DNA from: Deltaproteobacteria bacterium
Lineage (GTDB): Bacteria; Desulfobacterota; BSN033; UBA1163
Reading direction: 5' to 3'
Length of the DNA stretch: 64,000 bases
NCBI GenBank assembly: GCA_020059605.1
Contig: JAGVBT010000044.1
Location: forward strand, 42,554 to 106,553
Positions 4,887 to 56,016 of the stretch are shown here, in pieces. Every line of letters starts with the position of its first letter. Positions within the stretch are counted from its first letter, which is position 1. The notes beneath the pieces were generated by a model. It was not told the DNA's origin. It worked only from the letters and a program-made list of their open reading frames with translations, and searched no databases. Both the position numbers and the translations under genes were made by a program.

Positions 4887-5867
4887 TTACATTGGTTTTT
4901 TAAATCGATCCGGGTGAATCAACCTTGCCATCTCCTCCAGTCCATTGATGATTCTCGGAGCGGGACGATCGATCAGGTCCGAATCGATCAGGTGAATCCT
5001 GCCATGCTTCACAGCCGGAATCGTCTTCCATCGTTTCCATTCCCGCAAGACCCTCTCGTAATCTCCTCCCGGGTTCATCGAACTGACGAGGATCACCTCC
5101 GGCGATCTCTTCAGAATCTCCTCCATTCCCAGCCGGGGATACATCTCTCGATCCTTTCCCGAAATATTTTCACCGCCTGCGAGCCGGATAAGATCGTCGG
5201 CAAAACTCCCCTTTCCGACCGTCACAATGGGCGCCTCTCCGATCTGGAGAAAGACTTTCGGGCGAGAAATGGACCGGATCTGATCGGCCACCCTCTCCCT
5301 CCGCCTCTTCATCTCCTCAATCATCGAGACAGCCTCCTTCTCCCGTGCAACGGCCTGGCCGAGGAGACGAATGCTCCGGAGAACGTCATCAAACCTCTTT
5401 GGAAAGATCACAAAGGTCGGAAACCCCAACCTCTCCAATCGTTCCACCATCTCCCGGGTATTTCCGGATCCCGTGGCAATCACCAGGTCGGGCTTCAGCG
5501 AGATAACCCGCTCATAGTCGATGTGAATATAGCTTCCCACCTTCACCCGGTTCTTCACCTTCTCGGGATAGTTGCAATGGATTGACACCCCCACAACCTC
5601 CTCATCAAGGCCCAGGCTGAAGAGGATTTCCGTGATATTGGGAGCCAGGGAGACAATCCGCCTCGGAGGATAAGGAAAGGTAACTTCCCTGCCCACTTCA
5701 TCCTTCAATGTGATGGCTGGGGAATATGAAACCGACGTGCAGGTGAGAATGAGTACTGAAAGCAGGGTCATTGCCGGCGCAAACAAACCGATCTTTTGGA
5801 GCGTATTGCCCCGGGGTTTCATCCCTTGCAATGACGTCTTCTTCATGCTCTTGATCCATGGAGACAT
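4887..5867 (-). CDS. btuF: Periplasmic cobalamin/Fe3+-siderophore binding protein (BtuF-like)
   Basis: There is a signal peptide, and the class III PBP pattern PRRIVSLAPNITEILFSLGL...VSIHCNYP is present. The start is ambiguous (M1, M8 or M16). Confidence 0.75.
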   Translation of the reverse strand: MSPWIKSMKKTSLQGMKPRGNTLQKIGLFAPAMTLLSVLILTCTSVSYSPAITLKDEVGREVTFPYPPRRIVSLAPNITEILFSLGLDEEVVGVSIHCNYPEKVKNRVKVGSYIHIDYERVISLKPDLVIATGSGNTREMVERLERLGFPTFVIFPKRFDDVLRSIRLLGQAVAREKEAVSMIEEMKRRRERVADQIRSISRPKVFLQIGEAPIVTVGKGSFADDLIRLAGGENISGKDREMYPRLGMEEILKRSPEVILVSSMNPGGDYERVLREWKRWKTIPAVKHGRIHLIDSDLIDRPAPRIINGLEEMARLIHPDRFKKPM

Positions 5868-6790: not shown

Positions 6791-6834
6791 CAACATCACC
6801 CTTCACAGCCTTCCACCGAAGACCTGTTGTGAAG

Positions 6835-7020
6835 TGCGTTCAGGCAGGTTTTCTGGCTTACGGATCATCCTAATCCCTGCCCCTTCCCATCCTTCGACCC
6901 TTCGATAAACTCAGGGCTCAGGACAGTGGTTGCCGGCAGGTTTCGTCCCCGATTACAGCGGCGTGGCCGTCCCCGATTTCCACGGGGTTCCCTTATTCTG
7001 GCTTGGCGCCACCTGAACGC
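6835..7020 (-). promoter_or_regulatory. Cobalamin (B12) riboswitch aptamer
   Basis: The minus-strand RNA reads GCGUUCAGGUGGCGCCAAGCCAGAAUAAGGGAACCCCGUGGAAAUCGGGGACGGCCACGCCGCUGUAAUCGGGG...CCACUGUCCUG...GGGAAGGGGCAGGG...AGCCAGAAAACCUGCCUGAACGC. This carries the conserved GGUG, AAGGGAA, GUGGAAAUC, CCGCUGUAA, CCACUG, GGGAAGG and B12-box GCCAGnnnACCUGCC elements. A 9-bp P1 stem (GCGUUCAGG/CCUGAACGC) closes the aptamer. Confidence 0.9.
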
Positions 7021-7155
7021 AGATCAATTGTTTATAAATTACCATAATATTCGGCTTAATGTCAAATTTATTGAGTTTACATTTAGCCTAAAATATTGTA
7101 GAAGGAAGATAATTGCAGGTTTTTTAGGGATGGCTTCACGGGAGAAGGAGGGCAT

Positions 7156-41801: not shown

Positions 41802-42122
41802 GTGATTAAGCCAGACCCCTCTCTTGAGCCCGATTGGGATGAGGACAATATTGACCATATTGCCGAACATGGTCTTCGGCCGGAACAGGTTGAAGAAGTC
41901 TATTATGGTGAAGGGCCATTTCCTACTCTCGCTCTTAAAACTAAAAAACAAAAGGGTCGAGTTGCCGAGTATCGTTATCGGTTATGGGGGACTGATGCAT
42001 CGGGAATGTATATCGAAGCCATTATTGCCCCATACCCTGAATTTAGGCTTTGGAGGTGTGTTACCGCATTCCCCATGTCACCCTCCACACAGAAAGCCTA
42101 TTTAAGGAGAATCAAAAAATGA
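41802..42122 (+). CDS. BrnT-family (DUF497) ribonuclease toxin
   Basis: 106 aa. ...WDEDNIDHIAEHGLRPEQVEEV... is the BrnT pattern. Confidence 0.6.
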   Translation: MIKPDPSLEPDWDEDNIDHIAEHGLRPEQVEEVYYGEGPFPTLALKTKKQKGRVAEYRYRLWGTDASGMYIEAIIAPYPEFRLWRCVTAFPMSPSTQKAYLRRIKK

Positions 42123-42406
42123 AGAAAATTCCTCTCAAAATCAAAAAGAAGCTAAAAAGCGAGGCTAAAACATGGGATTCTTCTATTTCTCAAGAGAAGC
42201 CCAAAGAGGTATCCAGGCTGATCGAAAAAGCAGATTTATTTGTCGCCTACCGGCCTCCTCGGCAACCCGTTTCAGTGCGCTTAGATCCCTTCGACCTTGC
42301 ATTATTAAAGCGGATTGCCCGTAATAAAGGACTCCCTTTCACCCAGCTTATGTCCATGTGGCTGCACGAAAAAGTTGAGCAGGAGAAAACCAGAGTCGGA
42401 GCTTAA
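42119..42406 (+). CDS. BrnA-family antitoxin
   Basis: The start is at ATG 42119, with an ATGA overlap on the BrnT stop. The C-terminal RHH-like ...VSVRLDPFDLALLKRIARNKGLPFTQLMSMWL is present. Confidence 0.55.
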   Translation: MKKIPLKIKKKLKSEAKTWDSSISQEKPKEVSRLIEKADLFVAYRPPRQPVSVRLDPFDLALLKRIARNKGLPFTQLMSMWLHEKVEQEKTRVGA

Positions 42407-42475: not shown

Positions 42476-45400
42476 TCACAAAGGCTGAGCCAATACTTTC
42501 TCGTACTTCTCGACCCAGCCGTCGGCGCCGCATTCTTTGAGAATCTCTATGGCCTTGCCGAGATTCTCCTGGGCTTTTAATCTATCCCCTTTTCGTTTAA
42601 ACAACTCTGCATAAAGAGCATAATCATTTCCCAGGTGGAACATCGTTCGATTTCTCTGATCGGCTTCAATGGCCTTCTGAATCCAATACTCTGCTTCAGA
42701 TAAGTGCTGGTCATCAATGTTAAGCAGAATCTCTCCGATAAGTCTTTGCATCCCACCTTCGGCTGCCTTTACTTTATTGTTTCGTGAATGCACATACAAA
42801 GATTCCAAATCCACACCCTTTTCTTTATTCATCACTTTCGATCTTGCTATAGCAACTCTTCCCCACCCCACCCAGGAAGGCCATAAACGATTGCGCTCGA
42901 AAGCCGAAATCCCTTTTTCGAAACGTTCTTTAGAGCCCTGGAAATTTCCCATTTCAAAATAGGTATCTCCCAGGTGATATTGGTTTCCCGCATCCCAGCC
43001 AGAAATATTAATCTTTTCACAAAATTCGAACCCCTTCAGCAGGTATTTTTCAGCTTCTTCAAGCAATCCTTTCCCATAGCAGGAAGTTCCGTGACTTGAA
43101 TATGCTATTGCCTTTGAATAAATATCACCGCTCTCTTCAGCAATCTGGAGGCCTTCATTCGAAGTCTTGAATTGCAGATCTATTCTCCCATGGTACCAAT
43201 GAGAAAAATAGGCCAAATTACTCATCGTTACCGCAATGCCCCAAAAATTTTTTGCTGCCACATTAATATCAATAGCTCTTTGTGAAAATTTAATTGCTCT
43301 TTCAAATTCGCAGTTCGCCCCTAAAGCATATCCAAACCAGCTACTTGCTAAAACTAAACTAACAATATCTTTTATCTCTTCCGATATTTTTAGGGCTTCC
43401 TCAAATGCTTTAAATGCCTCTGGATAATTTTCTTCTCCAGACCAATAGTATGTTCCGAGAATCATGTATATGTGAGAAAGTCTCCTTTTATAATCACGTT
43501 TGATGGCCAAATCAATAATTGGATCTATGGCTTCTTTGGCCTCAACAAAATGGTTCATTTGAGCGATATAAAGTCCAAGAACCGTCCTGGCATCGACAAT
43601 CTGTTTTTCAATATTCGCTGCCTGGGTTAATCGCTCAAGAGATGCTATTCTCGTCTTTGCATAAGCAATCGCATCATTAAACGAAGCTGTCTTCTCGGCC
43701 CTCCTGCTTGCCAACCTCGAATACTCAGCGCATTTTGAATAATTCTCACTCAAGAGGTAGTGTCCGGATAATACTTCATAACATTCACTTAAATTATCCT
43801 TGTAAAGTTCCTCGATATTGTTCCCAATCTCCTCATGAAGTTTCTTCTTCCTTTTGGCCAAGATGGAATTATAAACCACCTCACGAGTTAAAGCGTGTTT
43901 GAAGACATAATTCGATTGAGGGTATATGCCTCTTTCATAAAGAAGTTCTGAGTCTTTAAGGATAGAAAGGTAAGAGAGCAGGTCTTTTTCTGGGAGGCCC
44001 ATAATGCGGTTTATCAATGGATAACTAAACTCTCTCTCAATGACAGACCCGCTTTGGAGCACCTCTTTTGCCCTCTCAGGTAAGGAATCTACTCTTGCCA
44101 TAATCACATCCTGGAGTGTTAAAGGAATGGTCAGCTCATGGATATCTTTTGATAAACGAAATTTGTTATCTTCTCTCTCTATGATTCTTAATTCTCTCAG
44201 GGACTGTATAAACTCTTCAATGAAAAAAGGGACTCCTTCTGTCTTCTCCAGGATCAATTCCTCAAGTGATTTTTCAATCTCTTTTGTCCCTAAAATATGG
44301 GTTGCCATCTCAAGGCTCTCCCTATTCGAGAGCCGATGCAACGTTAATTGATTGTGATAAGACTTTGCGCCCCAGGTGTGTAAAAACTCAGGCCGGTAGG
44401 TAAATATTAATAACACCCTTGCTCCCGGGATGCTCTCCAAATTGTTTCTTAATACGTCCTCTGAACTCTTATCCAGCCAGTGCAGGTCTTCAAATGCCAT
44501 CACCAGAGGCCGTATCTCAGACCCTCTAAGAATGATCCGTTTTATTGATTCAATAATCCTATCTTTCTTTGATTCAGGGCTCATGGAAATCTGTTCGATC
44601 CCACTATCCTTGACTGAGAGAAGCTCAAGGAGATATGGGAGAGTCGAGGCTTCATCGACTCCTATTAATCTCAACCCTCTTGTGACTTTTTCTTTGATTT
44701 CCTGGTCCCCTTCTCCTTCATGAATATCGAAGTTTGACTTCAGGATGTCTATCACCGGGTGATAAGCTACCCCCCTGCTGTAGGAGAGGCATTTCCCTTC
44801 CAAAAAGGTTACATTTTCGTTGACTATTGCCTTCCTGAATTCATACAAAAGCCTCGATTTACCACAACCGGCCTCAGATACAATAGAAAACGCCTGGCCC
44901 TTTCCTGATTTGGCTCTCGTAAATCCATCGAGCAGAAGCTCAAGCTCACGTTCCCTTCCAACAAAGGGAGTCAGCCCGCGCTCAGCACTGACATCAAATC
45001 TTGTCCTTCTCGTGCTGGGAGCGATCACCTGAAAAACCTTTATGGGTTCTTCCTTGCCCTTAACATTTTTTTTCCCCAAAGCCTCAAACCTAAAAAACCC
45101 CTCCGTGAGTTTGAAGGTATCTTCGGTCACATAGGTTGTTCCTGGTTCTGCCAAGCCTTCCATTCGGGATGATAGATTCACCGTATCTCCAACCGCCTTG
45201 AACTCAACCCGAAGATCATTACCCAAGCTACCCACCACCACAGGACCTGTGTGAATACCAATACGCATCTTAATTGGCGTTATTCTGCTTTCGATTTTGA
45301 GCTGATCGCTGAACTTGCTCATCTCCCGATGGATGGTTAATGCAGATCGAATTGCACGCTGTGGAGCGTCCTCCAGAGCAATCGGCGCCCCAAAAAGAGC

Positions 45401-45844
45401 CACAATCCCATCACCGGTTAATTCGTTGACAGTCCCTTCATAATCATGGACCTTGTGGATGAGGATTTCGTAAACCTGATCCATCATGGAGTAAGCTTCC
45501 TCAGGACCGAGCTTTTCGGTAAGTCCCGTATACCCCTCCATGTCACAGAACATCACCGTGACCTGTTTGCGTTCACCTTCAATTCGGTCGCGTTGAGATA
45601 AGATTTTTTCGGTTAGACCCCCGGGAAGGTATTTTTGAATCTTGGCTATCTTCTCATCAAAGGAAAGTTCTCTGGTGAGCGGTTTTGAAGGAAGGGTTAA
45701 GTCGTGGCCACACTCACCACAGAATTTGAATTGAGGAGGGTTTGAAGAATTGCAATGGGGACAGATCTTTTCTAATTTGGCACCACACTCCCCACAAAAC
45801 TTCAAGTTTTCGGGATTTTCAGTCTGACATTTTGGGCATTTCAC
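42476..45844 (-). CDS. Multidomain signalling protein: double zinc ribbon, class III adenylate/guanylate cyclase, STAND-type AAA ATPase and TPR repeats
   Basis: The N-terminal CPKCQ...CGECG / CPHCN...CGECG is a double zinc ribbon. The cyclase core has [10 protein letters not shown]...[11 protein letters not shown]...[10 protein letters not shown]. The Walker A is [11 protein letters not shown]. The C-terminal roughly 450 aa are TPR-like. The gene is AT-rich. Confidence 0.8.
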
Positions 45845-45983
45845 TCTTTTCCCCCTTCAATTGCATGATACTAAATAAATTGGGTGCCCCTAATTTTATT
45901 CGGCTGGCGGAAGGGTCTTCATCCGAAACGCCTTGCTCTATAGGTTTCCAGCACTGAAAAGATAGTCATCCTTGATACGTTCC

Positions 45984-47378
45984 TCATCGATTAGCATCTG
46001 TTCCATGAGCAGGCATACCCAAAAACTCACCCGTGATGCGTAGCACAGCATCCGCATCACCAAAGAAAGGCATATGAATACTTCCTTCTAATGGAACGAA
46101 GCGAGAGTTTGGAATCAAAGATGCCATCTCCCTCCCAAGATGGAATGGCATAGCCTTGCAACCCTTACGATGAATCACCAATGTAGGAACATGTAATCTG
46201 GGGAGAAGGTCTGTCACATCAAGGTCATATGTAAGATCTAACAATTTTGCAGCCATTTCTGCAGTAGCTGCCTCACGCTGTAAACGGATAACCCATTTGA
46301 GGGTAGAAACATCAGCGCCGGGTAAGAACATATCAGCCAAGGCCTTAGAACCAACTCCCCAGGCAGAACGAATCAGGGATGTAAAAGACTCCTTGAATTC
46401 CTTTGTAGTTATTGCCTCACCATTAGCATAAGAATCGAATAAGATTAAATGTGAAACACGTCTTGGATACTTAATTGCATAAGCGATGGCAACAGGACCA
46501 CCACAAGAAAATCCACACAATGCGAAACGTTTGAGCTTAAGATGGTCAATAACAGCCTCCAATGACCGAACCTCCGACTCTAATGTAAATTCTGTTCTGT
46601 TCCGTTCAGAAAGGCCACAGCCGTGTCTATCGTAAAGTACAAAGGTTTGATTACGAGTTCCTTTCTCTAAGTATTCACGTGTAAATGGATGTTCCCATTG
46701 TAACTGTAAATGACTGACCCATGCCGGAGGAAAAACCAAAAATGGTCCTTGGCCTACCACGGAGTAAGCGATGCGGACTCCATCAACGGTAGTGCAGAAT
46801 TGAATATGCTGGTCTATCACCTCCGCTGGAGAAAAAGTTCCACGCCCTATCAATACTCGATAAACCCTCACCGGCTTTGCAATATTCTTAACCGTTTGTT
46901 CGCCAAGATTCTCATAGCTTAACCCAAGTTTACCCTCAACTTGATCATAAGCTGTTCCTGAGATGCAGATCCCTCCGCCATTGGCCAGGCTCTGAACCCG
47001 AGCGGTGACATTGACTCCGTCACCGTAGATCCGCTCCCCTTCCTCAACAACATCTCCAAGATTGATCCCGATTCGAAATTCCATCCTGCTCTTTTCAGGT
47101 AGCTCAGCATTCTTTAGTTTGAGTTCCTTTTGGATTTCCACTGCACATTGCACAGCCTCTACGACACTAACAAATTCAGCTAAAAGATTATCTCCAGGGG
47201 AATCTACGACGCGCCCTTTGTGCTGTCTGATGAAGTTGGCCATGATTTCTCTATAAGTGGTTAGAGTCCGGATGGTCTCAATTTCATTCTCCTCCATGAG
47301 GCGGCTGTAACCTTTAACATCTGCACTGAAAATGGCAGCAAGCTTACGTTTAACCTCTTGGCTGTTCATGAAATTCAC
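45984..47378 (-). CDS. Class III adenylate/guanylate cyclase fused to an alpha/beta hydrolase domain
   Basis: The cyclase core has FSADVKGYSRLM...GDNLLAEF...RIGINLGDVV. The hydrolase part has GFSCGG (GxSxG) and downstream catalytic residues. Confidence 0.75.
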   Translation of the reverse strand: MNFMNSQEVKRKLAAIFSADVKGYSRLMEENEIETIRTLTTYREIMANFIRQHKGRVVDSPGDNLLAEFVSVVEAVQCAVEIQKELKLKNAELPEKSRMEFRIGINLGDVVEEGERIYGDGVNVTARVQSLANGGGICISGTAYDQVEGKLGLSYENLGEQTVKNIAKPVRVYRVLIGRGTFSPAEVIDQHIQFCTTVDGVRIAYSVVGQGPFLVFPPAWVSHLQLQWEHPFTREYLEKGTRNQTFVLYDRHGCGLSERNRTEFTLESEVRSLEAVIDHLKLKRFALCGFSCGGPVAIAYAIKYPRRVSHLILFDSYANGEAITTKEFKESFTSLIRSAWGVGSKALADMFLPGADVSTLKWVIRLQREAATAEMAAKLLDLTYDLDVTDLLPRLHVPTLVIHRKGCKAMPFHLGREMASLIPNSRFVPLEGSIHMPFFGDADAVLRITGEFLGMPAHGTDANR

Positions 47379-47559
47379 CCTCTAAAGGTTCTTAGGTTGG
47401 AAGAAGAGAACGCTGAAGAAAATATGAATCCGTCCTCAGTTGTGAATGATATAGGTTTATCGAGATGATCCACCTAACAGAACAAGAGGTTCTATTAAGT
47501 GGCAGATAGGCACATTTTGAGGCTCTTTCTCATTTAGAATACTGTGGTAACGGTGTCCA

Positions 47560-47994
47560 TTACTGAATTACTGACCCTGTCTCAGCTTTTCGAAAATACT
47601 GGCAGAGGGAGATCAGGATCTTTCTCTGGAGGCCCGGAACCGTATCAAGCAAATGGTCAAAAGATTTGCTGTTTACGATCAACAGGGTCATATCAGTTTC
47701 AGCAATGACCGTTGCGGTTCGGGGGCCCCTGTCAATGAGGGAGACCTCGCCAAAAAAGTCGCCTGAAGCCAGACGGTTTATCACCTTACCGCCTTTCTCG
47801 ACTCGGGTTTTACCCTCTAAGATGAAAACGAATTCCCATCCCATATCCCCCTGCTCGGCCAGGACCTTGCCAGCTTTGACCGACAACTGATCTGCATACT
47901 TGGCAATCTCGTTCAGATGGCGGTTGCTAAGATTACTAAACATGGGTACCTTTTTAAGGAGTTCGACCTTTTCGGAACGCCGGCGGAGTAGCAT
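47560..47994 (-). CDS. Standalone cyclic-nucleotide-binding domain protein
   Basis: 144 aa. The CAP-like cNMP pocket is ...FGEVSLIDRGPRTATVIA.... There is no output domain. Confidence 0.7.
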   Translation of the reverse strand: MLLRRRSEKVELLKKVPMFSNLSNRHLNEIAKYADQLSVKAGKVLAEQGDMGWEFVFILEGKTRVEKGGKVINRLASGDFFGEVSLIDRGPRTATVIAETDMTLLIVNSKSFDHLLDTVPGLQRKILISLCQYFRKAETGSVIQ

Positions 47995-48095: not shown

Positions 48096-48914
48096 TTAAA
48101 ACCAGCCGAGAGCCTTTTTGATCTCGTCGGCAAATTGGGGGAAGGGGGAAGGAGTAAAGGAGAGGAAGAAGACCAGGAACATGAAGCCCCCGATCACTTT
48201 TCGCTTTCCATCGATAGGGGTTTGATCATCGAGCGGCATGGGGTGGCGGAAACCAAAGAGGATCATGAGGATGAGCAGGAGAATCCATCCGGGATTGTAG
48301 AAGATCGTGATAAAGCCCATGACTGCAATGGCGATGAGGAAGATGGCGCGGCTCCTTTTTCCGAAGAGGGCATAGGCGATGTGGCCCCCGTCCAATTGTC
48401 CCACCGGAATCAGATTGAGGGCGGTGACGAAGAGACCGACCCATCCGGCATATCCGATCGGATGGAGCAAAACATCAAAGCCTTCCGGAACCTTTCCCAT
48501 CACCAGTTTCTGAATAAATGCAAATAGAAAAGGGTCCGCAAGGTGGATGGTCCCTTCTCTCAGATGGGAGGTTGGGATGACTTCGGAAAGCTTTAAGCCA
48601 ATAGCGATGGCGGGAATGCTCAAGATGAGGCTGACCAGTGGGCCTGCCACTCCCGTGTCGAAGAGTGCTTTCCTTGAGGAGAGGTGGCCTTCCATCCGGA
48701 TAACAGCCCCCAGCGTTCCAAAAGGCGACAGAGGGAAAGGCAGAAAGAAGGGCAACGTGGCTTTTATCCCATGCCTCCGGGACATGAAGTAGTGACCCAT
48801 TTCATGTCCCAGGAGGATGAGGATAATGGCAATGGAGTAACCCGGTCCTCCGGTCATCCAGGTGGAGGCCACCGTCAGGATGAAGAGAAGGAGATGGATG
48901 GCTTTCCGGCGCAT
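48096..48914 (-). CDS. Site-2 protease family (M50) intramembrane metalloprotease
   Basis: HEMGHY (HExxH) sits in a TM helix. It is a multi-TM protein with a second conserved LDGG motif. Confidence 0.75.
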   Translation of the reverse strand: MRRKAIHLLLFILTVASTWMTGGPGYSIAIILILLGHEMGHYFMSRRHGIKATLPFFLPFPLSPFGTLGAVIRMEGHLSSRKALFDTGVAGPLVSLILSIPAIAIGLKLSEVIPTSHLREGTIHLADPFLFAFIQKLVMGKVPEGFDVLLHPIGYAGWVGLFVTALNLIPVGQLDGGHIAYALFGKRSRAIFLIAIAVMGFITIFYNPGWILLLILMILFGFRHPMPLDDQTPIDGKRKVIGGFMFLVFFLSFTPSPFPQFADEIKKALGWF

Positions 48915-48923
48915 GAAAAAGGG

Positions 48924-49016
48924 TTATTTCTTCTTCTTGTGACGATCCCGGTCTAATTGCTTTTTGTGTTTATGCTTACGCATCTTCTTTCGTCTCTTTT
49001 TGACAACACTTCCCAT
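48924..49016 (-). CDS. Small basic protein resembling ribosomal protein bS22 (DUF1713-like), 30 aa
   Basis: It translates as MGSVVKKRRKKMRKHKHKKQLDRDRHKKKK, the MGSV-KKRRK-M-K-KHKK pattern of bS22-type proteins. It lies 9 nt upstream of the S2P gene. It is below the ORF-track length cutoff. Confidence 0.5.
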   Translation of the reverse strand: MGSVVKKRRKKMRKHKHKKQLDRDRHKKKK

Positions 49017-49049
49017 AGGCTGTTCTCCTTCGTTGGTTTAGACCGGGGG

Positions 49050-49283
49050 TTAATCGACAATCACATTCGTCTGGGTCCTTAAAACGCCCGAAAGCCCCTG
49101 GATTTTGGTGACGATGAAATCGCCAAGGATATTGATATCCGGTGCCTCCACCAGAGCGATCACGTCATAGGGACCCGTTGTTGCATTCGCCCGCTTCACT
49201 CCCTGGATCTTGGTGGCCTCTCTGGCCACATCCCTGGCAGTCCCTGCGGTGCATTCAATAAAAACATAAGCAGAGATCGGCAT
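49050..49283 (-). CDS. Lrp/AsnC-type standalone ligand-binding (RAM) domain protein
   Basis: 77 aa with the ...VFIECTAG...VKRANATTGPYDVIALVEAPD... fold pattern. Confidence 0.6.
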   Translation of the reverse strand: MPISAYVFIECTAGTARDVAREATKIQGVKRANATTGPYDVIALVEAPDINILGDFIVTKIQGLSGVLRTQTNVIVD

Positions 49284-51287: not shown

Positions 51288-51458
51288 CTCTTCCTATTTT
51301 CCGTACTGAGCAGTTGAGAATGGATTGAAAAACTATCACATAATAGGATGAAAATCAAGTTTTTCGCCAAACCGTGTGCGACCTTTTTTAAAACCATTTT
51401 TTTCTTGTCCGTTTAGGTCAGATATATTATAAAATAATTGAAGAAACGGGAGAAGAAG

Positions 51459-52007
51459 ATGATTGAGATCCGGTTTCATGGAAGGGGGGGACAGGGAGCG
51501 GTGGTGGCTTCCAAGGTGTTGGCCGTTGCCTTTTTTCATGAAGGGCTCTATGTCCAATCTTTTCCTGCCTTTGGAGTGGAGAGGCGCGGGGCGCCTGTGA
51601 TGGCCTTCTTGCGGTTGGATAAGGAGCCCATCCTATTAAGGGTGAACATCTATAAACCCGATCACATCATCGTTTTAGATCCCACCCTGATCAGAGCCGT
51701 GGATGTCACCTCCGGCCTGAAACCCAACGGATGGATTCTGATCAATTCAGGTCATTCTCCTGAAACATTTAATGATCTGAAGGATTTTAGAATCGCCACC
51801 GTCGATGCAACCTCCATTGCAATCCGAAATGGTTTGGGTTCCCGAACAAACCCGATTGTCAATACAGCCATCTTAGGAGCCTTCTCAAAGGCGAGTGGGC
51901 TGGTGGGAATTGATTCCATTGCCCTGTCGATCCGTGAAGAGACTCCCGGAAAGAAGAATGAGAATGCCAAGGCAGCAAGAGAAGCGTATGAGGAAGTGAA
52001 ATTCTGA
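51459..52007 (+). CDS. 2-oxoacid:ferredoxin oxidoreductase, gamma subunit
   Basis: [19 protein letters not shown]...[14 protein letters not shown] is the gamma-subunit motif. The RBS GGGAGAAGAAG is present. Confidence 0.85.
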
Positions 52008-52106
52008 GGAATGTCAAATGTCAAAATCCAAATACCAAATGAATGTCAAATTTCAAAAATAGGAATTTTGATATTTGAGCTTTGGATTTGATTTGACATT
52101 TGAACT
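52008..52106. repeat. AT-rich TGTCAAAT/CCAAAT word repeats forming a long imperfect palindrome
   Basis: GAATGTCAAATGTCAAAATCCAAATACCAAATGAATGTCAAATTTC ... TTTGGATTTGATTTGACATTTGAACTTTGTCATTTGGCATTGACAT lies between the gamma-subunit gene and the fused oxidoreductase gene. Confidence 0.8.
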
Positions 52107-52157
52107 TTGTCATTTGGCATTGACATCTGTCAGATCAATCAGGGACAAGAGGAGAGG

Positions 52158-53903
52158 ATGTCCAAACAATTCCAATTCAAGAGTGTTTCTGAGATGCCCA
52201 TGATCTCTGTTTCGCTGGGGGATATGGAATGGAACAAAACGGGGGCATGGAGAACGCAGCGCCCTTTTTATGAAGATAAGACCCCTCCGTGCAGTGCGGC
52301 CTGTCCGGCAGGAAATGATATCGTTGCATTCATCCAAAAAATTGCAAAGGGAGATTTTGAGGGAGCCTGGAATATCATCAAGGAGGAGAACCCCTTTCCA
52401 GGAGTCTGCGGCAGAGTCTGTTTTCATCCCTGCGAGTCAAAATGTAACCGGGGATCCTTCGATGAACCCATTGCGATTCATGCTCTGGAGAGGTTTGTAG
52501 CGGGCTTTGGTTCCCGCCTGAGCAAGAACACCGGAAAGTCCGGAGAGAAAAGGAAGGAGAAGGTTGCCATTATCGGCTCCGGGCCAGCCGGGATGAGCTG
52601 CGCCTATCATCTTGCAAGGCTCCATCACGATGTGACGGTCTTCGAATCCTTACCCCTTGCAGGCGGCATGCTCAGGATGGGCATTCCCTCCTACCGGTTG
52701 CCCAGGGAGGTCCTGGACAGAGAACTCTCAGGGATTGAAGCCCTGGGAGTAAAAATCCAAACAGGGGTTGCTCTGGGGGAGGATGTAAGGTTAGAGGACT
52801 TGAAGAACTATCGGGCCATCTTCATCAGCACAGGGGCTCACCGGAGCAGAGGTCTTCAGATTCCAGGAGAAAAAGAGAAGGGTATCCTGGGTGGTCTTGA
52901 TCTGCTGAAGAGGATGAACCTGGGCAAAAGAATGAAGCTGGGCGACAAGATTGCCATCATCGGCGGGGGAAATACGGCGATCGATGTGGCCCGGTCAGTG
53001 ATCCGGCTCGGTAAAAAAGCAACGATTCTCTATCGTCGTTCAAGGGAGGAGATGCCGGCCTTTGCAGAAGAGATTACGGAGGCTCTCGAAGAGGGGGTAA
53101 AGATCAGATATCTGGTCAATCCCATCCGCCTTCAACAGAAAGATGGTCTTAAACGATTGGAGTGCCTCCGCATGGAGCTGGGGGAGCAGGATGAGAGTGG
53201 CCGGAGAAAGCCGGTTCCCATCCCCAATTCCAATCTCCGCATCGATGTGGATCATGTGATCGTTGCGGCAGGAGAGGAGATCGAAGCCTCCTTTCTTCCG
53301 GAGGGGTTGGAGAAGAAAGAGGGGATCGTTCTCACCCGGAGAGACGCAAGCACCGGCATCAAAGGGGTCTTTGCCGGAGGAGATCTCACCTCCACCCAGC
53401 GAACTGTAGCCCATGCCATTGGTTCGGGCAAGAAAGCTGCAATGGCGATCGATGCCTTCCTGGAGGGGAAGGATACGGAAGAGGCGATTGTTCAACATCT
53501 GGTAGGAGAGGGCCCATCCCTCTCCATCTTTAGATATCTCCATCCGGGGGAGAGGCCCAGGAATCCTCATATCGTACCTTTTGAAGAATTGAATATGGAC
53601 TACTTCGAACTTGCGAAAAGACAGGAAGAATCGAAAAGGAGGGTGAAGGAGAGAATCAGGGACTTCAATGAGGTCACCTCCACCCTTACCGAGGACGCTG
53701 TCCTCGAGGAGGCCGGGCGGTGTTTCGGTTGCGGGACCTGTAATGAATGTGAGAATTGTTATGTCTTCTGCCCCGATGTCTCCATCTTAAAGTCAGGGGG
53801 AATCCTCTCCCATCAGGTCGATTATGATTATTGTAAGGGCTGTGGCATCTGTTTCACCGAATGTCCTCGGGGCGCCATCTCTCTAAAAGAGGAGGCTAAA
53901 TGA
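52158..53903 (+). CDS. GltD/SudA-like NAD(P)H-dependent FAD oxidoreductase fused to a C-terminal PorD-type 2x[4Fe-4S] ferredoxin domain
   Basis: The N-terminal Cys cluster region is CSAACPAGNDI...CGRVCFHPCESKCNRG. The FAD/NAD GxGxxG motifs (IIGSGPAG, IIGGGNTA) are present. The C-terminal CFGCGTCNECENCYVFCPD...CKGCGICFTECP is PorD-like. It sits in the slot where a delta subunit normally lies. Confidence 0.7.
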   Translation: MSKQFQFKSVSEMPMISVSLGDMEWNKTGAWRTQRPFYEDKTPPCSAACPAGNDIVAFIQKIAKGDFEGAWNIIKEENPFPGVCGRVCFHPCESKCNRGSFDEPIAIHALERFVAGFGSRLSKNTGKSGEKRKEKVAIIGSGPAGMSCAYHLARLHHDVTVFESLPLAGGMLRMGIPSYRLPREVLDRELSGIEALGVKIQTGVALGEDVRLEDLKNYRAIFISTGAHRSRGLQIPGEKEKGILGGLDLLKRMNLGKRMKLGDKIAIIGGGNTAIDVARSVIRLGKKATILYRRSREEMPAFAEEITEALEEGVKIRYLVNPIRLQQKDGLKRLECLRMELGEQDESGRRKPVPIPNSNLRIDVDHVIVAAGEEIEASFLPEGLEKKEGIVLTRRDASTGIKGVFAGGDLTSTQRTVAHAIGSGKKAAMAIDAFLEGKDTEEAIVQHLVGEGPSLSIFRYLHPGERPRNPHIVPFEELNMDYFELAKRQEESKRRVKERIRDFNEVTSTLTEDAVLEEAGRCFGCGTCNECENCYVFCPDVSILKSGGILSHQVDYDYCKGCGICFTECPRGAISLKEEAK

Positions 53904-55054
53904 AGAGGGTCATCACAGGAAACCAGGCAGTGGCCTACGGCGTCATCTTGAGCCGTGTGGATGTCATCTCCGCATACCCCATCACACCCCAGACGACGAT
54001 TGTGGAAGAGCTTTCAGAACTGATTGCAAGCGGCCGCCTGAAGACAAAATTCCTGAAGGTAGAATCAGAACATTCCGCCATGGCCGCACTGATCGGAGCC
54101 TCCACCGGAGGGGTTAGAACCTTTACGGCTACATCCTCTCATGGATTAGCCTATATGCATGAGATGCTCCACTGGGCTTCCGGAGCGAGGCTTCCCATTG
54201 TTCTGGTCAATGTCAATCGGGCCCTTGGCGCACCTTGGAATATATGGGGCGATCAGAGTGATTCTCTCTCCCAGCGGGATACGGGATGGATTCAACTCTA
54301 TTGCGAAAATAATCAGGAGGTCCTCGATACCATTGTTCAGGCTTATCTGATCGCAGAAACGGTGAGACTTCCTGTGATGGTTGTCCTCGATGCTTTTGTC
54401 CTTTCCCACACCGCTGAGGCTGTTGAAATTCCAAGCATCGAGGAGGTGGACTCCATCTTGCCGCCTTTCTGTCCGGATTATCCGATCGACACCCAGGAAC
54501 CGAGAGCCTATTCCGTGATCACCACCCCTGATTATTTTTTGGAGTTTCGTTACAAGGTCCAGAAGGCCATGGAGCAGGTCCCAGAGGTTGCCAAGAAGGT
54601 GGATGATGAATTCAAAGCCCGGTTTGGCCGGGGTTATGGAGCGATTGAAAGATATGGAAAAGAAGGGGCCAAAGTGTTGTTGATGACCTCTGGAACGGTC
54701 ACCAGCACGTCAAGAACAGTGATCAAGAAGCTGGTGGAGAAAGGTTTAAGCGTTGCCGGAATCAAGATCAAACGGTTCAGACCCTTTCCCTCCGAAGAGA
54801 TTTGCGAAGCGATTCAGGGGGCAAAGAAGATCGCTGTCATCGACCGGAACCTTTCTGCCGGAGTGGGTGGCATCTTTGCACAGGAGTTAAGAGCCTCTTT
54901 GTATTCTCGGGAGGAGAGGCCTCCTGTCTTCGGATTCGTTTCCGGATTGGGTGGACGAGATATTACTCCGGAACTGATCGAAGAAGCGATTCAATATACA
55001 ATGGAGCACCCTCAGCCCGAAGGAGATATTGTGTGGCTAGGACTGAAAAGATAA
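53900..55054 (+). CDS. 2-oxoacid:ferredoxin oxidoreductase, alpha subunit
   Basis: 384 aa with the PorA/VorA-like domains I and II. It overlaps the upstream stop by 4 nt. Confidence 0.85.
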   Translation: MKRVITGNQAVAYGVILSRVDVISAYPITPQTTIVEELSELIASGRLKTKFLKVESEHSAMAALIGASTGGVRTFTATSSHGLAYMHEMLHWASGARLPIVLVNVNRALGAPWNIWGDQSDSLSQRDTGWIQLYCENNQEVLDTIVQAYLIAETVRLPVMVVLDAFVLSHTAEAVEIPSIEEVDSILPPFCPDYPIDTQEPRAYSVITTPDYFLEFRYKVQKAMEQVPEVAKKVDDEFKARFGRGYGAIERYGKEGAKVLLMTSGTVTSTSRTVIKKLVEKGLSVAGIKIKRFRPFPSEEICEAIQGAKKIAVIDRNLSAGVGGIFAQELRASLYSREERPPVFGFVSGLGGRDITPELIEEAIQYTMEHPQPEGDIVWLGLKR

Positions 55055-55059
55055 ATTTC

Positions 55060-55125
55060 TAAATTCGAATTTCGAAATTGTTTCGAGTTTCGATATTCGG
55101 ATTTCGGATTTTAGAGATCCCAAAA
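55060..55125. repeat. AT-rich TTTCGA/TTCGGA word repeats including the perfect palindrome AATTTCGAAATT
   Basis: TTCTAAATTCGAATTTCGAAATTGTTTCGAGTTTCGATATTCGGATTTCGGATTTTAGAG lies between the alpha and beta subunit genes. Confidence 0.8.
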
Positions 55126-55137
55126 AATGAGGCTTAG

Positions 55138-56016
55138 ATGAATAAAGTAAAGGTCCCTATTGCGGAGAATCTTGGTCATGGTCATCTGGCCTGTGCTGGA
55201 TGCGGGGCTGCGGTTGCCATGCGGTTAACATTGAAGGCCCTCGGTGAGAAGACAGTCATGGTCTTTCCTGCCTCGTGCTGGTCAATTGTCCCCGGATTCT
55301 GGCCCTATTCCAGTTACAAGATTACAGCTGTCCATGCCGGGTTTGTCACAGGAGCTGCGACTGCGTCAGGAGTCAGGGCCGCCCTGGATGTTCGAGGGGA
55401 CGATGAAACCCTGGTGGCGGTGTGGGCGGGAGATGGTGGGACTTTTGATATTGGGCTTCAGGCTCTCTCCGGCGCAGCGGAGAGAAATGAAGATTTGCTC
55501 TATATCTGTAATGATAATGAAGGGTATATGAATACAGGCACTCAGAGAAGTTCAGCCACACCGCTTCTTGCCTGGACAACGACCACTCCGGTGATGCAGC
55601 CCAAAGAGAATCCAAAGAAAGATATTATGGCCATCATGGCTGACCACCATATTCCCTATGCGGCAACAGCAACGATCGCCTACCCGGAAGACCTCATCCG
55701 AAAACTGGAGAAAGCAAGAAGCATCCGTGGAACTCGGTTCATCCATCTTTTCTCTCCTTGTCCGCCGGGATGGAAGATGCCCTCCGAACAGACCATCAAA
55801 ATTTCGAGGCTTGCCGTCCGCTCAAGGATCTTTCCCCTTTATGAGATTGAGAATGGAAGATTCTATACGATTCAGGAAGAAACCCGTGTTGTCTCTGTGA
55901 AAGAGTATTTAAAAATCCAGGGTCGATTCAGCCACCTCACTGAAAAAGATATCGAGATGACTCAAAGAAATACGGACGATGCCTGGGAACGCCTTCAGAG
56001 AAAAGCCCGTTGCTGA
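55138..56016 (+). CDS. 2-oxoacid:ferredoxin oxidoreductase, beta subunit (TPP-binding)
   Basis: The Cys ligands of the proximal cluster (CAGCG...C) and the TPP motif GDGG...NN are present. Confidence 0.85.
   Translation: MNKVKVPIAENLGHGHLACAGCGAAVAMRLTLKALGEKTVMVFPASCWSIVPGFWPYSSYKITAVHAGFVTGAATASGVRAALDVRGDDETLVAVWAGDGGTFDIGLQALSGAAERNEDLLYICNDNEGYMNTGTQRSSATPLLAWTTTTPVMQPKENPKKDIMAIMADHHIPYAATATIAYPEDLIRKLEKARSIRGTRFIHLFSPCPPGWKMPSEQTIKISRLAVRSRIFPLYEIENGRFYTIQEETRVVSVKEYLKIQGRFSHLTEKDIEMTQRNTDDAWERLQRKARC

Follow-up and report, generated by a model that had tools for sequence, protein, structure and literature searches.

A gene of just 30 codons lies on the minus strand of the window, that is, the whole 64,000-nucleotide stretch of DNA analysed here, between the gene for a stand-alone ligand-binding domain of the Lrp/AsnC type and that for a membrane-embedded protease of the site-2 family. 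Read in the direction of the minus strand, the features of this region are:

49050..49283, minus strand: stand-alone Lrp/AsnC ligand-binding (RAM) domain protein, 77 aa (PF01037, 47.9 bits)
49038-49047 and 48947-48956, minus strand: perfect 10-bp inverted repeat, CCCGGTCTAA / TTAGACCGGG
49025..49029, minus strand: Shine-Dalgarno motif AGGAG of the short frame, the end of the motif lying 8 nt before the ATG
48924..49016, minus strand: gene assigned here to bS22, 30 codons plus TAA, product MGSVVKKRRKKMRKHKHKKQLDRDRHKKKK
48915..48923, minus strand: spacer from the bS22 stop to the M50 start, 9 nt (ccctttttc), no Shine-Dalgarno motif
48096..48914, minus strand: Peptidase_M50 (site-2 protease family) membrane protein, 272 aa, HEMGH motif (PF02163, 79.2 bits)

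The short frame opens with ATG at 49016-49014, runs through 30 sense codons and closes with TAA at 48926-48924, and both its nucleotides and its translation are exactly as given in an earlier, sequence-only reading of this DNA. That reading had also placed the frame 9 nt upstream of an S2P protease gene, which is borne out by the length of the spacer and by the identification of the downstream product as a Peptidase_M50 protein, the ATG of which begins at 48914. On the other side, the RAM-domain gene stops 33 nt before the bS22 ATG and encodes a protein that lacks a DNA-binding domain; panB and a panE/ApbA-type gene are found further upstream on the same strand.

The composition of the product is extreme. 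The 30 residues of MGSVVKKRRKKMRKHKHKKQLDRDRHKKKK comprise 12 lysines and 5 arginines (57%) together with 3 histidines, and of the 389 ATG-started open reading frames in the window that are 20-60 aa long, no other reaches 45% Lys+Arg. A content of 55-65% Lys+Arg has been reported for bS22/eL41 (PMC10085706), and the peptide fits the family both in size (about 30-33 residues) and in its hyper-basic composition. The GC content of the frame is 38%, against 50% for the window. A frame of this length is lost at an open reading frame cut-off of 60-75 aa, much as the sequence-only reading had said of a 60-aa limit, and is listed when the cut-off is lowered to 25 aa.

Downstream of the M50 gene, the minus strand carries a cyclic-nucleotide signalling gene cluster (42476-47994) with the following members:

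47560-47994, minus strand: cNMP-binding protein
45984-47378, minus strand: cyclase fused to an alpha/beta hydrolase
42476-45844, minus strand: 1122-aa protein with zinc-ribbon, cyclase, AAA_16 and TPR domains

In most relatives, a PHP/HHH-domain gene and a radical SAM gene are found downstream of M50 instead of this cluster. Elsewhere in the window there is a full-length cobalamin riboswitch at 6826-7031 on the minus strand (Rfam RF00174, 101.9 bits). Going by translations alone, adjacent or overlapping frames of 106 aa and 118 aa at 41802-42406 (plus strand) resemble a toxin-antitoxin pair, and a divergently oriented run of frames at 51438-56016 (plus strand) resembles the subunits of a 2-oxoacid:ferredoxin oxidoreductase, accompanied by a glutamate-synthase-like Fe-S flavoprotein. 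An Rfam scan of the 64 kb found no rRNA genes.

Assignment to the bS22 family

Membership of MGSVVKKRRKKMRKHKHKKQLDRDRHKKKK in the bS22 family is indicated by profile scores above curated cut-offs and by similarity to chains that have been solved within ribosomes. The peptide scores 37.9 bits against the NCBIfam equivalog model for the 30S ribosomal protein bS22 (NF047430, ribo_bS22; cut-off 34), in a full-length match that covers positions 1-30 of 31, and 26.7 bits against the Pfam family COX24_C, formerly DUF1713 (PF08213; cut-off 23). These searches uphold the proposal, made from the letters of the DNA, of a bS22-like (DUF1713-type) hyper-basic ribosomal protein gene. Because a basic peptide of low complexity could match such models on composition alone, nine composition-preserving shuffles of MGSVVKKRRKKMRKHKHKKQLDRDRHKKKK, with the initiator methionine fixed, were scanned as a control, and bS22 was matched by none of them at E<=10. 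Of the variants in the 16 relatives reached by way of M50 (see below), the most divergent, that of L011, scores 39.1 bits with NF047430.

When MGSVVKKRRKKMRKHKHKKQLDRDRHKKKK was compared by phmmer with all PDB chains, the only matches were to bS22/DUF1713 chains of ribosomes, and these come from Actinomycetota and Bacteroidota. The bS22 chains of Mycobacterium smegmatis, M. tuberculosis and Cutibacterium acnes are matched with E-values of 2e-7 to 3e-3, whereas the Bacteroidota chains are matched weakly (Porphyromonas gingivalis, 9I5V, E 0.63; Flavobacterium johnsoniae, 7JIL, E 4.9). In the searches as a whole the E-values are modest, 1e-9 at best, for a query of just 30 residues with an extreme composition. 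The sequence-only reading had regarded the N-terminal pattern as characteristic of bS22, a protein that it gave as first described in Actinobacteria and Bacteroidetes; the pattern is of the actinobacterial type, and the matches to the Bacteroidota chains are weak (E 0.6-4.9).

Comparison with actinobacterial bS22, as exemplified by M. smegmatis MSMEG_0945 and its counterparts in M. tuberculosis and C. acnes (PDB 5O5J/5O61, 8CRX), brings out the shared block MGSV(I/V)KKRRK(K/R)M and, beyond it, shared residues K14, K16, H17, K19, L21, R23 and R25. Size class, charge and profile families are also held in common, and identity to the M. smegmatis protein is 18/30 (~60%) by hand count from the alignment. 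Among the residues kept is K16, which in M. smegmatis bS22 is reported to contact the backbone of h44 (PMC10081302). The two types part company towards the C-terminus: the window protein has 30 aa rather than 33, its C-terminal half reads QLDRDRHKKKK, with two aspartates and a terminal lysine run, in place of the actinobacterial LLRRTRVQRRKLGK, and D22 and D24 stand where the actinobacterial protein has Arg/Thr. They differ too in that the window gene comes from Thermodesulfobacteriota and has a RAM-domain gene and an M50 gene as its neighbours, and in that a place in the ribosome is predicted for its product by homology.

Likeness to the bS22 of Bacteroidota (F. johnsoniae Fjoh_1533, 7JIL; P. 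gingivalis, 9I5V) and of Borrelia burgdorferi (bb0822) is of a more general kind, that is, a hyper-basic single helix (of 30 aa in the window protein, as modelled) encoded by a short gene that is easily missed in annotation. With F. johnsoniae bS22 the window protein also shares a C-terminal run of four lysines, which in the Flavobacterium ribosome face the 50S subunit (PMC13000457). Sequence similarity to the Bacteroidota proteins is nevertheless weak, as noted above, and the N-terminus of the window protein is of the actinobacterial type; unlike the Borrelia gene, which has a GUG start, the window gene has an ordinary ATG and a Shine-Dalgarno motif. The PF08213 (COX24_C) domain is shared with mitochondrial mS38 (AURKAIP1 / yeast Cox24). 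However, mS38 proteins range in length from 111 to over 500 aa and carry the domain at their C-terminus (PMC10081302), whereas the window protein consists of the 30-aa domain alone and is encoded in a bacterial genome, so that its architecture is not that of an mS38 orthologue. The eL41 protein of eukaryotic and archaeal cytosolic ribosomes shows no sequence similarity at E<=10, its chains being absent from the PDB matches at that threshold, and its published relation to bS22 is structural and positional: both mS38 and eL41 occupy a pocket of the small subunit equivalent to that of bS22 (PMC10081302, PMC10085706 and the Borrelia ribosome paper).

AlphaFold models MGSVVKKRRKKMRKHKHKKQLDRDRHKKKK as one continuous helix over residues 3-29 (pLDDT 93.9), a generic shape that agrees with bS22 without singling it out. 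The bend or kink of ribosome-bound bS22 is absent from this model of a very short helix, and a Foldseek search of the PDB with it returned no matches, at a length too short to be informative. Taking the profile and chain matches together with the conservation described below, the frame is very likely to be the gene for the small-subunit ribosomal protein bS22 of an uncultured Thermodesulfobacteriota bacterium.

Conservation of the frame in relatives

The exact product MGSVVKKRRKKMRKHKHKKQLDRDRHKKKK has already been gene-called in 227 blocks of a public assembly collection. In this respect the description of the gene as unannotated, although true of any annotation made at a cut-off of 60-75 aa, was overstated as a general claim, since gene callers already call the exact product. 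In all ten of the exact matches listed, the gene is flanked by an AsnC_trans_reg gene on one side and a Peptidase_M50 gene on the other. At the nucleotide level the ten loci fall into nine distinct sequences, each with 11-17 changes relative to the window over the 93 positions, all of them synonymous, a pattern that arises partly by construction because the loci were picked by exact protein identity; their flanks are too diverged to align, and the frame is retained.

Given this bias, a second and unbiased sample was taken through homology of the neighbouring M50 protein, with one genome per species, and gave 16 loci with an M50 protein 68-87% identical to that of the window. The close relatives in this sample are labelled Thermodesulfobacteriota, Deltaproteobacteria, Syntrophaceae and Syntrophorhabdus, and the lineage is known from metagenome-assembled genomes (MAGs) only; the Delta-like affiliation suggested by the sequence-only reading was therefore close. 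All 16 genomes have the frame at the same position beside M50, with an ATG, a motif resembling Shine-Dalgarno and 8-9 nt between its stop and the start of M50. The ribosome-binding motif takes the form GGAGG, GAGAGG or GGGGTG and stands at the same distance in every relative, and the remainder of the upstream region has diverged.

The conserved frame in this sample is the bS22 frame itself. Seventeen distinct nucleotide sequences yield only five protein variants, which differ at position 13 (R/A), 18 (K/E) and 20 (Q/R/M) and, in one case, by one C-terminal lysine fewer. The variable nucleotide sites are distributed 8/2/23 over the three codon positions, and only 17% of random single-nucleotide changes to this sequence would be synonymous. 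Across these genomes, in which M50 identity is 68-87%, the peptide stays 90-100% identical. The frame is thus translatable, with its own Shine-Dalgarno motif, and is under strong purifying selection. That it is no chance feature follows from its unique Lys+Arg content, from the failure of the shuffles to match and from the coding-type conservation in relatives.

A more divergent form, MGSVVKKRRKKIRKHKHKKLLDKTRHKKKRR, is found in two further loci (L091, 5109-5204; L092, 3384-3479) in which M50 is 57% identical. This variant scores 42.8 bits with NF047430 and its gene has been called as an over-extended 67-aa product; its C-terminal half is intermediate between the window clade and the actinobacterial type, and both loci keep the trio of RAM-domain, bS22 and M50 genes. 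Among the other genomes with an M50 protein at most 60% identical (L027-L090, which are Syntrophorhabdus-labelled MAGs and members of other phyla), neither a regular expression nor a permissive tblastn found a bS22-like frame within the 3 kb around M50 that were searched. A tandem-duplicated query of 60 aa gave 20 hits and a phmmer search of all representatives gave 10, and those examined were over-extended calls of the bS22 frame; JGI gives over-extended versions of it the name 'DUF1713'. Entries listed by the collections searched were all of 38 aa or more, and a query of 30 residues is too short to reach distant relatives at E<=0.001.

Gene order, coupling and other possible roles

In the clade, bS22 is followed by M50 as a conserved partner, and the RAM-domain gene lies directly upstream in all 26 clade loci (L001-L026), with products that are 78-99% identical and better conserved across the clade than the M50 protease. 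No terminator-like sites were found between the RAM-domain, bS22 and M50 genes, and counts of promoter- and terminator-like sites are at chance level. From this local arrangement, the three genes are probably co-transcribed. It also suggests that translation of M50 is probably coupled to termination at the bS22 frame, because the 9-nt spacer has no Shine-Dalgarno motif of its own and because, in four relatives (L003, L005, L007 and L008, at 5090-5093), the bS22 stop and the start of M50 overlap in an ATGA. A further step, in which the trio, with its stand-alone RAM (amino-acid-sensing) domain protein, would be a translationally coupled module through which the output of a ribosomal protein at the decoding centre is linked to nutrient sensing or to regulated intramembrane proteolysis, is an unlikely one.

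The setting of the gene is unusual for a ribosomal protein, and the conserved association with a membrane protease has to be weighed as a sign that a peptide of the bS22 family might act mainly outside the ribosome, either as a cationic, helical antimicrobial or translation-inhibiting agent or as a partner or modulator of the adjacent M50/RAM module. C. acnes bS22 does inhibit bacterial growth, and E. coli cell-free translation, in vitro (PMC10085706), and the acidic D22 and D24 set the window peptide apart from actinobacterial bS22. Nonetheless, the peptide has no signal peptide and no export system adjoins its gene; S2P proteases cleave transmembrane segments, and a hyper-basic helix is not one of these; its extreme conservation, with K16 retained, is in keeping with the constraint expected of rRNA binding; and the NCBIfam threshold passed belongs to a model of the equivalog type. 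Such a role is accordingly given little credence.

The spacing towards M50 has also to be considered from the standpoint of regulation, as the frame might primarily be a regulatory upstream open reading frame or leader peptide that sets M50 expression, its resemblance to bS22 being incidental. In every relative the frame ends 8-9 nt short of the M50 start or overlaps it, the spacer has no Shine-Dalgarno motif, and the frame keeps its pairing with M50 throughout the clade and in L091/L092, all of which would suit a leader. Yet leader peptides are rarely 90-100% identical over 30 residues while the gene they regulate drifts to 57-87%, and an incidental resemblance is hard to reconcile with the passing of two independent curated bS22/DUF1713 thresholds that shuffled peptides fail. 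Moreover, a real ribosomal protein gene could also be coupled to the gene that follows it. We consider a leader function very improbable.

The RNA around the frame folds somewhat better than shuffles (z = -2.5) by way of the perfect inverted repeat, one arm of which lies in the spacer that follows the RAM-domain gene and the other in codons 21-24 of the bS22 frame. A structured RNA or ribosomal protein leader was rejected as a conserved element at this site, since the relatives closest to the window (L012, L016 and L017) lack the inverted repeat, and no Rfam family matches there; the repeat is probably incidental. That the frame is an untranslated cis-acting RNA element, or a chance opening in a purine-rich spacer, is an idea to which its very short length, A-richness and low complexity, along with this local fold, lend some colour, but it is effectively refuted by the distribution of variable sites over codon positions, and the few proteins encoded by many nucleotide sequences, the start, stop and Shine-Dalgarno motif kept in all 16 relatives, the loss of the repeat and the behaviour of the shuffled peptides leave it with next to no likelihood.

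Phyletic range and expected place in the ribosome

With the frame read as a bS22 gene, the expected behaviour of its product can be drawn from homologues. In the ribosomes of Mycobacterium, Cutibacterium, Flavobacterium, Porphyromonas and Borrelia, bS22 has been seen in a pocket formed by h27, h44 and h45 and contributes an intersubunit bridge. By homology, the basic helix of about 30 residues encoded in the window would bind the ribosome by inserting into this pocket of 16S rRNA in the 30S subunit, beside the decoding centre; its Lys16 would touch the h44 backbone, and its C-terminal KKKK may reach 23S rRNA (H67-H70) to form an extra intersubunit bridge. Elsewhere, bS22 is known to lie beside the decoding centre and to form an additional bridge between the subunits, and in mycobacteria it modulates sensitivity to aminoglycosides.

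In the literature examined, published structures of ribosomes that contain bS22 come from Actinomycetota, Bacteroidota and Borrelia, and a 2026 paper places the protein in 'Mycobacteria and Bacteroidia' (PMC13000457). The authors of the Borrelia ribosome paper predicted bS22 in other bacteria, short genes being missed. No survey of the distribution of DUF1713/COX24 in other phyla was found in a literature search that was partly poorly targeted, and the distribution of bS22 is poorly described in the literature examined because genes of 30 codons are often skipped. The bS22 of Thermodesulfobacteriota is thus an addition to a known family and extends its documented range modestly, in that the structures found in that literature are confined to Actinomycetota, Bacteroidota and Borrelia. 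To this extent the sequence-only reading, which thought the occurrence phylogenetically notable, was mildly right; against it, an NCBI equivalog model captures the sequence. The identification itself is ordinary, as existing NCBI and Pfam models recognise MGSVVKKRRKKMRKHKHKKQLDRDRHKKKK, and the picture of the family's function is unchanged. The only new detail is the conserved arrangement of RAM-domain, bS22 and M50 genes, in the clade and in one more distant lineage.

A weaker version of the unlikely module reading would take the actinobacterial-type bS22 seen here, in a fourth phylum, as support for an ancient and near-universal 'uS22'. The Thermodesulfobacteriota protein adds to the evidence for a wide spread of bS22 among bacteria, and its gene illustrates how cut-offs on the length of open reading frames hide real components of the ribosome.
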